From Candidatus Poriferihabitaceae bacterium (lineage in GTDB: Bacteria; Pseudomonadota; Gammaproteobacteria; Arenicellales; Poriferihabitantaceae), in assembly GCA_965204165.1 (NCBI GenBank), contig OZ241969.1:888735-952734 (forward strand): 64,000 nt of DNA, read 5' to 3'. This document shows, piece after piece, positions 15,057-17,773 of the stretch. The translations under genes were made by a program, and so were the position numbers. Under the pieces are notes generated by a model that saw only the letters and a program-made list of their open reading frames with translations, was not told the DNA's origin and made no database searches. The number at the start of each line of letters is the position of its first letter. Within the stretch, counting starts at the first letter, position 1.

Positions 15057-15713
15057 TGGTCCTAGGCACGGGAACATGCCGGGACCCGTTGGACCGGCGG
15101 GTTTTCCTGGCGGCGCCGTTCCCCCGGATTCGACCGTACGATTGTTTGTTGCCGCTGCCGTCGACCCGTCGACGCCGCGAACTGCAGCAGGTACCTTTGT
15201 CTGGAATTCACCTGGGCGTTCGTGCCTTGACGTTTCCCATGCTCCGCAGCCGGTCGCGCCGGTCCATGGCATCCATCCCCGCCGCTACCTTCCCTTCCCT
15301 GGCCACTGCCGTACTTTTGCGGATGGGTGATGGTCAATCGGCGCTTCTTCCGATAATTTCCCACCGCCCCACTCTGGCCGCGGACCAAATCGACCCTTGC
15401 CGATCTGTCGCATAGGCGGCTTCCCGCGATGCCGAGGTCATTCTAAGGGACGCCCTTGTGCGAAATGTACAAGGCGACAATATTTTCCTCCATGGCCCCA
15501 AGGCAAATTTGTTCTGATTCGCCCGAAGAGATCGTTACTGCCGTGCTTGGGATTTATCACGGATTATTTTGGCCACTTTGGACTGAATTGGCCGCCATGG
15601 TGGTTACACCGGGCAGGTTGATGTTCCCGGAGGTGGATTTCCGTTCCGTTGAGGCATGACTGTTCCCGCCCCTGTGTGTTGAGGGGCTGAGGATTCGGGG
15701 CCTGGAGGGATGC

Positions 15714-17491
15714 TCAGCCGGTAGCCGGGTATGGCCTGGCGTTGTCGGTCATCTTGAGGAAGTCGAGCATGCGTCGGGGATTCCTGGCGAGGTGGCGCAT
15801 GGTTTCGGCGACGGCGAGGCCCCGGCTCTGTATGATGCCGATGGCGAATCGCCTGAGGCGGGACATGTTCTGGGGACCGTGTCCGGCCCGGATTCGGCTG
15901 CGGTCCTCGTCGAAGGTCCAGTCGAGGACATGATGCATGGCCTCGACGGACCAGTGCCCGCGGTTGAGGGAGAGGATTCGCTCGGGGGAGGCGTCATTTG
16001 GGGTCAGGCTGGTGATTCCGTAGGCGATCTCACGGCGTTTCCTGCCGGTTGCGGTTTCGGTGGTTTCACGCATCACGGCGAAGACCTGTCCGACGTTGGG
16101 GAACTGGAGGTAGTGGTTGAGCTTGTCCGAGACCCAGACGGAACGGCGCTCCCGGCGGCCATGGACGGGTTTGGGGGCCTGGTCGGTGAAGTCCGGCGGA
16201 CGGCGCTGGATGTGGCGGTCGAGGAGCAGTCGGATATCGGCGAGCAGGTTTTTCTGGTTGCCCTTGACGGTGAAGAGGTAGTGGGCGCGGCGTCCGTGGA
16301 GATAGTCGGCGAGCTTGCGTTGGGTGAGCATGGCATCGGTGGTGATGGTGCATCCTTCGATGTCGGAGAGGGTGTCGAGCAGCGGGATGACGATGCCGAT
16401 CTCGTTGGTGCGTTTGGTTTCGTCATCGGCCCCCGGTTTCAGGCCGACTTTTTTTGACTCCAGGGGATTCCGGTGTGGTGGCCGACGGCGCCGAGCACAT
16501 GGGGCCGGTTGCCCTGGTCATCGATGGCGCCCCGGATGGTCTTGCCGTCGACGGCAATGGCGGTGTCCTTTGGGCCATGGACCTGGTGCCACGCCCGCAG
16601 GGCGGCATCGAACTGGTCCGGGTCGATGCGGATGAGGACGCTGCGGATGGCGGACAGGCTGGGCACCTGGTGTCCGCTCCTGGAACGGCGTACGCGGAAA
16701 CGTTCCAGGACCCTGGGGCTGAGGTCGTCGATCCATTCGCTCATGGCCTTGTAGCCGCGCATGCCGCAGAGCGTGGCCGCTGCTGCCAATGCCAGCATGG
16801 TGGACAGGGCGTGGCGGCGGCCCTGGCGGCGTCGGGGATCGTCGATGTCGCGGAAGAAGTCGGGCAGGGATCGCATCTGTTCGGCGGTGAGAGTCATCCT
16901 GGGTACTCCATGTTGCAGTGTGGTGTCGAGGCAGGGGTCCCGGAGGCGGGCGCGGGCGGTGCGCGACAGGGGATGGACGAAGACGAGCTTGGGATTTGCG
17001 TGTTCGCTGTAGCCCGGGCCCTCGCGGCCGAAGCCCCGGGTATGCCCGACCTCGATCCAGTTGGCGGCGCGGTAGACGGTGCCGTGGAAGCGGGCGGGGT
17101 CGACGAAGGTCTCCACCAGCAGGAGGCCGTGACCGAAGCGGAGCGGCCAGTCGCGGGCGAGGCGGCGGGTGCACAGGGAAAGCACGCGCGAGCCGAGGTT
17201 GCGCGGTGCGCCGGGCAGGATCAGGAAGCGCGAGTTGTTGGTGATCAGGTGCAGGCGGCCGAACCGGATGCCGTACTCCCAGCCGATCCACCGGTCCCGG
17301 GCGCCGCATTTCAGCGCCGATGCCGAGAACATGGCCAGTGCCAGCCAGCGCCCCCGGTGATGGGCCACATAGCGCAGCGTCTCGCCCCGCGCCGGCACCG
17401 CGCCGAGATAGTGATGCGCCTGCATCAGATCCCGGAACCGGGATTCATCTCTCGCCGGTATGATGTCTACCGACACCTCTGAAAGGTCCAC
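15714..17491 (-). CDS. DUF4338-ISAs1 family transposase, two frames joined at a -1 slippery site
   Basis: ORF 16439..17491 carries a DUF4338-like N-terminus (HHYLGAVPARGETLRYVA...NNSRFLILP...TFVD..RF.GT.YRAANW) and a DDE_Tnp_1_assoc-like segment (FFRDIDDPRRRQGRRHALSTML). The -1 frame continues ...KTNEIGIVIPLLDTLSDIEGCTITTDAMLTQRKLADYL...NRGHWSVEAMHHVLDWTFDEDRSR, the ISAs1 catalytic core. Confidence 0.8.
16448..16454 (-). promoter_or_regulatory. A_AAA_AAG heptamer in the zero frame (candidate programmed -1 frameshift site)
   Basis: On the minus strand ORF1 reads caA AAA AAG tcg gcc tga. A -1 slip gives ...K K V G L K P G A D D E T K R T N E I, which joins ORF2. Confidence 0.5.
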
Positions 17492-17773
17492 CTTGCGTAT
17501 GTCCGTCTGATGGTCTTGTGACGGGATTTATACCAGTACCCGGGGGAAAAGTCCAGTGTTTGGGGTAAGTCCTTTGACCGGAAGAAAAAACTCTGCAGAA
17601 AAGAATTACCCTGTCCATGGCCCGCCGTGAACTGGAAAGGCCATGTTATACAAGGCGTTGGCTGGGTCTGTGGGCATGCGCCTGTTCAACGTGGGCGAGA
17701 GCGATGGTCGGGGACAGGAGTTGACGTGTCACGAGCTGCTCGGAGAACTTCGCTTCGCCCAAAAGCGGAATCC

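Follow-up and report, generated by a model that had tools for sequence, protein, structure and literature searches.

Programmed −1 frameshifting is textbook knowledge for the insertion sequences (ISs) IS1 and IS3, whereas the canonical members of the ISAs1 family (ISAs1, IS1358 and ISEc1/H-repeat) encode a single open reading frame (ORF) in elements of ~1.2–1.5 kb, which have terminal repeats beginning with CAGGG and a target duplication of 8–10 bp. In the DNA analyzed here, a stretch of 64,000 nucleotides of contig OZ241969.1 from a Candidatus Poriferihabitaceae bacterium (the window, to which all coordinates refer if not stated otherwise), an IS of the DruA-like/ISAs1 type carries on the minus strand a transposase gene that is divided into two frames, orfA and orfB, at an A_AAA_AAG heptamer (Table 1). 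It resembles canonical ISAs1 elements in its match to the ISAs1 transposase profile NF033564, its CAGGG left end and its 10-bp duplication, but differs in its length of 2115 bp, in the transposase encoded in two frames and in an extra domain; it is larger due to ~200 additional N-terminal residues, which form the DruA-like domain. We regard it as probable that the two frames are joined by programmed −1 recoding, with a ribosomal slip as the main route.

The closest described systems are similar to this element in some respects and different in others. In IS1 (insA/insB') and in the IS3 family (IS911, IS150, IS3) a −1 site of the type A_AAA_AAG or A_AAA_AAA also lies in phase with orfA (PMC4066793), the OrfAB fusion serves as transposase, the DNA-binding part is retained in the short OrfA, and a low efficiency of the shift probably serves as a brake on transposition. 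In contrast to these elements, the IS in the window belongs to ISAs1 with a Tn5-like DDE core, its slip site is located in strand beta3 between the first and the second catalytic aspartate, no conserved hairpin, pseudoknot or Shine-Dalgarno stimulator was found for it, and its OrfA carries a Mom/GNAT-like domain. Escherichia coli dnaX uses the identical heptamer, likewise with tRNA-Lys(UUU) as the only lysine tRNA (PMC3711429). However, dnaX has a strong Shine-Dalgarno element and a hairpin, reaches ~50% efficiency and yields a shorter product upon shifting, whereas in the window IS the shift leads to a longer product and a stimulator is not conserved. In the transcriptional realignment of the IS630 type a homopolymer run joins two transposase frames as well, but the short run (6–8) of the window IS and its relatives and the constant direction of the layout favor a ribosomal slip (PMC3711429). 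Finally, the N-terminal domain matches the profile of Druantia DruA and folds like phage Mu Mom and GNAT proteins in the model of a homolog. In contrast to Druantia, this domain is fused to a transposase in a 2.1-kb IS without other genes, and neither DruB–E partners nor a large helicase are present; judged from its gene content, the element would therefore not be a member of this defense system and would share only the DruA-like domain with it.

Table 1. Positions of the IS, its two-frame transposase gene and associated features in the 64,000-nucleotide window.
Feature	Position	Strand	Details
Complete IS, DruA-like/ISAs1 type	15499..17613	-	2115 bp; boundaries common to 26 copies by BLAST of own genome
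Left terminal inverted repeat	17596..17613	-	CAGGGTAATTCTTTTCTG
Right terminal inverted repeat	15499..15516	+	CAAGGCAAATTTGTTCTG read inwards; end also given as CAAGGCAAATT
Target-site duplication at left (5') IS end	17614..17623	.	TCCATGGCCC (+ strand)
Target-site duplication at right (3') IS end	15489..15498	.	identical 10-mer TCCATGGCCC
orfA	17491..16439	-	zero frame, 350 aa, GTG start, TGA 16441..16439, end ...GIPWSQKKSA, then stop
DruA (PF14236, former DUF4338)	17024..17458	-	residues 12-156, Pfam E 2.2e-23, GNAT/Mom-like fold
DDE_Tnp_1_assoc (PF13808)	16589..16861	-	residues 211-301, Pfam E 8.5e-21
Slippery heptamer A_AAA_AAG	16454..16448	-	in phase with orfA, codons K347 and K348
Local hairpin UCGGCCU-N8-GGGCCGA	16426..16447	-	RNAfold; starts 1 nt after heptamer
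orfB	16448..15714	-	−1 frame, 244 codons and stop codon (15716..15714)

At the junction the minus strand reads ...CCC TGG AGT CAA AAA AAG TCG GCC TGA, with a run of seven adenines (A7) at 16455..16449 followed by G at 16448. Reading in the −1 frame from G16448 gives VGLKPGADDETKRTNEIGIVIPLLDTLSDIEGCTITTDAMLTQRK... (shorter forms VGLKPGADDETKRTNEIG and VGLKPGADDETKRTNEIGIV) and later ...TTDAMLTQRK..., and joining of orfA and orfB results in a DruA-like/ISAs1 transposase of 592 amino acids with residues 347–349 at the junction and the predicted OrfAB junction peptide ...SQKKVGLKPGADDETK. The heptamer sits exactly where the homology switches frame, and the motif QKK-VG of the −1 product is the motif conserved in in-frame homologs. 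A first-pass annotation, made from the sequence alone, had described the end of orfA, the positions, the in-phase heptamer and the −1 continuation correctly, as was confirmed by re-reading of the minus strand, and the restored protein of about 590 amino acids that it had predicted agrees with the 592 residues found and with a profile match that runs unbroken across the junction. The same run is present in all 26 copies in the genome and at the homologous position of dozens of diverged relatives, and the occurrence of A_AAA_AAG at the junction is far beyond chance. Independent translation of orfB was considered and rejected: between the upstream stop and ATG 16331 no ATG, GTG or TTG is present, and this first start codon falls after the catalytic residue D386.

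Zero-frame translation of orfA covers the DruA/Mom-like domain, the DDE_Tnp_1_assoc helix-turn-helix and the strands beta1–beta3 of the catalytic core with the first aspartate. In the joined protein these are followed by a Pfam match to DDE_Tnp_1 (PF01609) at residues 311–540, and the NCBIfam profile NF033564 matches residues 233–553 without interruption over the junction (E 2.2e-57, 194.6 bits compared to a cut-off of 70), while the Pfam match to Mom stayed below the threshold. The ISAs1 catalytic core that had been proposed at first reading is thereby confirmed by NF033564, PF13808 and PF01609, and the assignment of the N-terminal domain to DUF4338/DruA by the PF14236 match and by the fold match described below. 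Of the catalytic residues, D315 (AVDGK; codon 16549..16547) is encoded in orfA, and D386 (TTDAM; 16337..16335) and E517 (HWSVEAM; 15944..15942) are encoded in orfB. The structural context was derived from the AlphaFold model of an in-frame homolog, P0003, which is 71% identical and has a mean predicted local distance difference test (pLDDT) score of 75.6. The order of elements in this model is beta1 (first Asp), beta2, beta3, helix, beta4 (second Asp), with QKK placed centrally in beta3. Over its C-terminal two thirds the model can be superposed on Tn5 transposase (E 8e-9), and over its N-terminal domain on phage Mu Mom (8bv8_B; E 4e-7, TM 0.66) and on GNAT acetyltransferases. As judged from this model, the slip site would fall in strand beta3 of the Tn5-like core. 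OrfA alone would represent a truncated core, and neither the orfA nor the orfB product alone appears able to act as a transposase. Since the triad D315-D386-E517 is complete only in OrfAB, only OrfAB could transpose the element.

Analysis of the whole genome, a single contig of 4.99 Mb that includes the window, indicates that the element has been mobile in this divided form. BLAST identified 26 full-length copies with 99.4–100% identity and the same boundaries, with the CAGGG-type ends CAGGGTAATTC... and ...CAAATTTGCCTTG; the left and right terminal repeats are imperfect and match in 13 of 18 positions in a by-eye alignment. The 10-bp target duplications are exact in 20 of the 26 copies and in three more if a one-base ambiguity of the boundary is allowed. 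In three of the 26 the flanks are swapped with those of another copy, which points to recombination between copies. For the window copy, joining of the flanks does not give a long open frame, suggesting that the insertion site is intergenic. In 40 related genomes only diverged fragments and remnants of the element were found (≤80% identical). Taken together, the sequences reflect a burst of transposition in the very recent past, with about 24 separate insertions. All 26 copies have exactly A7 and none is in frame. Moreover, tblastn detected no other ISAs1 catalytic domain in this genome, the remaining matches covering the DruA-like domain of different elements, and complementation in trans by another ISAs1 element was rejected on this basis. 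The uniform A7 run, the absence of an in-frame copy and the absence of another catalytic domain argue that the element multiplied in the two-frame state without a visible helper.

Among the 26 copies 15 positions are variable (eight nonsynonymous, six synonymous and one non-coding), which are too few and too recent for a test of selection. These positions all separate two subfamilies, with 12 and 14 members, and no change is confined to one copy. Seven of the 15 subfamily sites, five of them nonsynonymous, are located within 61 bp at 17401–17461, i.e., in orfA codons 11–31 at the start of the DruA-like domain, and this cluster looks like a recombination patch, not like scattered point mutation. 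Regarding the swapped flanks, the left 10-mer of each of the copies at G000:C1 88673–90787 and 645533–647647 equals the right 10-mer of the other (ATAGTTCCCT and TTCAACTCAG), which indicates recombination between copies or an assembly misjoin at the repeat, and the left flank of the copy at 1285498 is shared with the duplication of the copy at 4745867.

The two-frame layout is not restricted to this genome. A protein search with the joined sequence returned full-length proteins of ~592 amino acids and many proteins of ~351 amino acids. Among the best 120 clusters at 90% identity, 56 are of the OrfA type and end with QKKSA, QKKSG, KKKSA, AKKSA, QKKWG or similar ([QKA]KKS), and 36 are long, of which 26 contain QKKVG, QKKIG or similar in frame. 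On the DNA level 89 loci were examined, comprising the window copy and 88 relatives. The comparison of orthologous copies that had been recommended at the outset thus was carried out, and heptamer and −1 layout are kept at the homologous site in 73 of the 89 loci, down to ~52% protein identity. The runs of the split loci are A7 in 55 cases (CAA AAA AAG), A8 in 17 (AAA AAA AAG) and A6 in one (L087, CCA AAA AAG with TAG directly after), and one metagenome locus (L118) has CAA AAA AAA TCG, which corresponds to A_AAA_AAA. The phase of the heptamer and the −1 relation of the frames are constant, while the length of the run varies between six and eight. Loci of the +1 type are limited to L031 and L082, single odd copies among −1 siblings. 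In three other genomes with several copies these are likewise split: 15 of 15 in a Binatia metagenome-assembled genome (MAG), 13 of 13 in a gammaproteobacterial MAG and both intact copies (2/2) in Methylotuvimicrobium buryatense 5G.

In-frame relatives contain CAA AAA AAA GTN (A8; L084/85, L104, L105), CAA AAA AAA ATC (A9; L101), CAG AAA AAG GTC (L103), CAA AGG AAG ACC (L102, a degenerate copy) or CAA AAT AAA GTC (L100, for which the contig name indicates 3x coverage). A single base in the run separates the split forms from the in-frame ones. Closely related single-ORF copies with eight adenines had been named as the observation that would speak for a simple indel; such copies are absent among the close relatives but present among distant ones with 46–62% identity (L084/85, L104 and L105).

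For a maximum-likelihood tree of 56 proteins, joined or full-length, the four residues at the junction were excluded. The clade that contains the window element has full support and comprises 28 rows, nearly all of them −1, with in-frame forms only as isolated tips, while a second clade (18 rows) is a mixture of split and in-frame forms. By parsimony at least ten changes between the split and the single-frame state are needed on the 56-row tree, and the A7 and A8 states seem to interconvert over evolutionary time. In-frame A8 relatives and these changes show that slippage of the run on the DNA level also occurs. Within the −1 clade the ratio of nonsynonymous to synonymous substitution rates (dN/dS) is 0.20–0.39 for orfB and 0.18–0.40 for orfA, at synonymous rates (dS) of 0.3–1.0, and the two are indistinguishable; orfB is thus under purifying selection and maintained as coding sequence in split lineages. 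Furthermore, in these genes of 65–71% GC content lysine is encoded to ~80% by AAG and glutamine to ~88% by CAG elsewhere in the gene, whereas the site always reads CAA AAA. This retention against the codon bias suggests that the A run itself is under selection.

Several alternatives have to be considered. The split could reflect a dead pseudogene or a sequencing artefact, i.e., the true run would be A8 or the copies would be inert relics of a single-frame transposase. One-base errors in homopolymers are the commonest error type of long-read data, the single-contig assembly is probably derived from long reads and, judging by record names and contig sizes, many of the related MAGs appear to be as well. 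However, an independent Logan contig of 2011 bp, assembled from the unrelated run SRR22586462, matches the IS with 98.2% identity, has the same A7 and reads ...CTGGAGTCAAAAAAAGTCGGCCTGAAACC..., and the −1 layout is found in relatives on contigs of short-read type (the Joint Genome Institute metagenome contig L118, Logan L119, megahit L086 and L096, SPAdes L094), the short-read origin being suggested solely by sources and record names. Moreover, the isolate M. buryatense 5G carries two identical split copies and a third copy with a second indel. The genome under study retains A/T runs of length 8 (54) and of length 9 (22), and G/C runs of 7–8 are situated deep inside long open frames in 75–86% compared to 75% for random positions; there is no genome-wide sign of homopolymer truncation. 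These sequences argue that A7 is not an assembly error, and 26 copies with fresh target duplications are not inert relics, making this explanation very improbable. The initial preference for recoding over a homopolymer pseudogene is accordingly strengthened by the 26 A7 copies, the Logan contig and the 28-row −1 clade. A phase switch on the DNA level would instead imply that the A run is a hotspot of replication slippage, that A7 copies are OFF and without transposase, and that rare A8 revertants are ON, mobilize both themselves and, in trans, the A7 copies and afterwards revert or are lost. We give this little credence. Indels in A runs are a known class of mutation (PMC3711429), A7 and A8 are only one base apart, and they alternate on the tree (L088/L104 and L090/L105), but about 24 separate insertions have left 26 A7 copies without any A8 copy, the multi-copy genomes mentioned above are uniformly split, nearly all members of the clade of the window element are −1 and their orfB is subject to purifying selection, and ribosomes supplied only with tRNA-Lys(UUU) are expected to slip on the heptamer anyway. 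Polymorphism in run length was found neither among the 26 copies nor in comparison with the 98% identical element of the other sequencing run; it exists only between distant lineages.

Transcriptional slippage as the main route, in which RNA polymerase adds one A on A7 without a ribosomal shift, would result in an identical product, and poly-A runs are used in this manner in other IS families such as IS630 (PMC3711429); the in-frame A8 and A9 relatives, too, retain the run. However, transcriptional realignment was described for A runs of n>7 and usually produces layouts of the +1 as well as the −1 type, while a direction conserved among orthologs is regarded as a sign of ribosomal frameshifting (Antonov et al., PMC3711429). 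The runs here are short (A6–A8, mostly A7, with A6 in L087) and only the −1 direction recurs, the two +1-type loci being odd copies, so that by these criteria a ribosomal slip is favored and transcriptional slippage as the main route is quite improbable. Other observations weigh against programmed ribosomal recoding. The site is inside the catalytic domain, whereas in IS1 and IS3 it separates the DNA-binding from the catalytic domain. A conserved downstream hairpin or pseudoknot was not detected, RNAalifold returning zero pairs for 16 relatives, and the single-sequence folds of 17 elements differ between relatives; no Rfam frameshift element was matched. The stem noticed directly downstream of the heptamer in the first-pass annotation does exist (16447..16426), but its 96-nt fold is not significant (z −1.54), it is not conserved and as a stimulator it is unsupported; it is probably incidental. 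An upstream Shine-Dalgarno stimulator was rejected by eye, the window having GGAG 3 nt before the heptamer and distant relatives CACACC or CACACT, and no consistently placed Shine-Dalgarno-like element was seen by eye among the relatives. Without a conserved stimulator the slip would be unstimulated and of low efficiency, and DNA-level slippage to A8 could in principle supply active copies.

With respect to efficiency, the most efficient V_VVA_AAG heptamers were reported to give ~0.3% −1 frameshifting if no stimulator is present, and as much as 3.7% in a favorable 3' context (Sharma et al., PMC4066793). It was also noted that a stimulatory element is not obligatory for frameshifting in IS elements and that these often use sites of low efficiency, keeping the transposase scarce (PMC4066793). 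The host encodes one tRNA-Lys gene with the anticodon UUU and none with CUU. This corresponds to the situation in E. coli, by analogy with which an AAG codon in the A-site would be especially prone to shifting.

In the programmed −1 recoding that we favor, normal translation would yield the 350-amino-acid OrfA with the Mom-like domain, the helix-turn-helix and beta1–beta3 including the first aspartate. A small share of the ribosomes would undergo a one-base backward slip of both tRNA-Lys(UUU) molecules on A_AAA_AAG, the slip and its efficiency being deduced from the features described above, and reading would continue as ...QKK-VGLKPG... to the 592-amino-acid OrfAB with D315, D386 and E517. 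RNA polymerase adding one A on A7 might make a minor contribution and would give the same protein. A low slip efficiency would hold transposition low, and OrfA would probably have a regulatory or competing function at the IS ends. As an unlikely extension, the A run could exert control on two levels, A7 acting as a "low gear" with rare slips and mainly OrfA, which has a role of its own, for example in repressing transposition or in the modification or marking of DNA at the ends of the IS, and A8, reached by one-base slippage of the DNA, as a heritable "high gear," together tuning the transposition rate.

Some further observations concern the DruA-like domain and the distribution of related elements. 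A DruA-like domain with 35–40% identity to residues 2–219 of the window transposase also occurs in other elements of this genome, at G000:C1 215718–216155 (and 11 further identical places), 2346805–2347326, 3855455–3856039 and 4187711–4188295. In frames of 757 and 762 amino acids this domain is fused in one frame to transposases with an IS4-like motif seen by eye (...YERRWTIEEYFRVLKSG...), while at the 2346805 locus a 522-amino-acid open frame ends in the DruA-like domain and no transposase part was seen. It seems that DDE transposases carry the Mom/GNAT-like domain as a recurring addition. The genome itself is 4.99 Mb in size, compared to mostly 3.4–4.2 Mb (one 5.6 Mb) in the 12 genomes of the same genus that were searched, and it has no more than 40 tRNA genes, together with several IS families in multiple copies, which suggests a recent expansion of ISs.

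In the Binatia MAG (OZ244869.1; L038, L039, L041, L047) a second IS copy starts 2176 bp further on the same strand in four places; these head-to-tail tandem pairs may represent (IS)2-type intermediates or may have arisen during assembly. In M. buryatense 5G (L106–L117) the ~150 bp adjoining the right end of the related IS are part of a repeat that occurs more than 40 times in that genome with 80–97% identity; it could be a repetitive extragenic palindromic (REP)-like or miniature inverted-repeat transposable element (MITE)-like sequence into which the IS has landed or which the IS targets. In the plasmid collection the best match was a distant member on Thiodictyon plasmids without this A run and split elsewhere. 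This 43% identical DruA-ISAs1 relative, on plasmid pTs485 of Candidatus Thiodictyon syntrophicum (NZ_CP020372.1 471061–473559), reads GTG GCG CAG CGC GAG at the homologous site, and its frame changes further downstream beside CATTTCCCCCCTCTGC, a C-tract; it is annotated as "ISAs1 family transposase" and "hypothetical protein" and may represent a second, different slip site in the family.

As a summary, −1 recoding is new for ISAs1 within the literature searched, while the kind of mechanism is already known. The search, which left ISfinder and TnPedia outside, found no paper on recoding in ISAs1 or on fusions of DUF4338 to transposases, in line with the initial remark that frameshifting is not generally described for ISAs1. 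The frameshift clusters of GeneTack termed "DDE_Tnp_1" could include such elements but are not resolved to the family (PMC3711429). Annotation pipelines label these elements as an "ISAs1 family transposase" fragment and a hypothetical protein, and a widespread and highly active IS group, with 26 copies in the genome studied here and 13–15 in other MAGs, is thereby scored as pseudogene. Unusual are the family, the position of the site in the catalytic fold, the lack of stimulators and the switching back and forth between A7 and A8 in the course of evolution. With a slip site in the catalytic fold and no conserved stimulator, these elements offer a natural case for how much unstimulated slippage on A_AAA_AAG sustains transposition.

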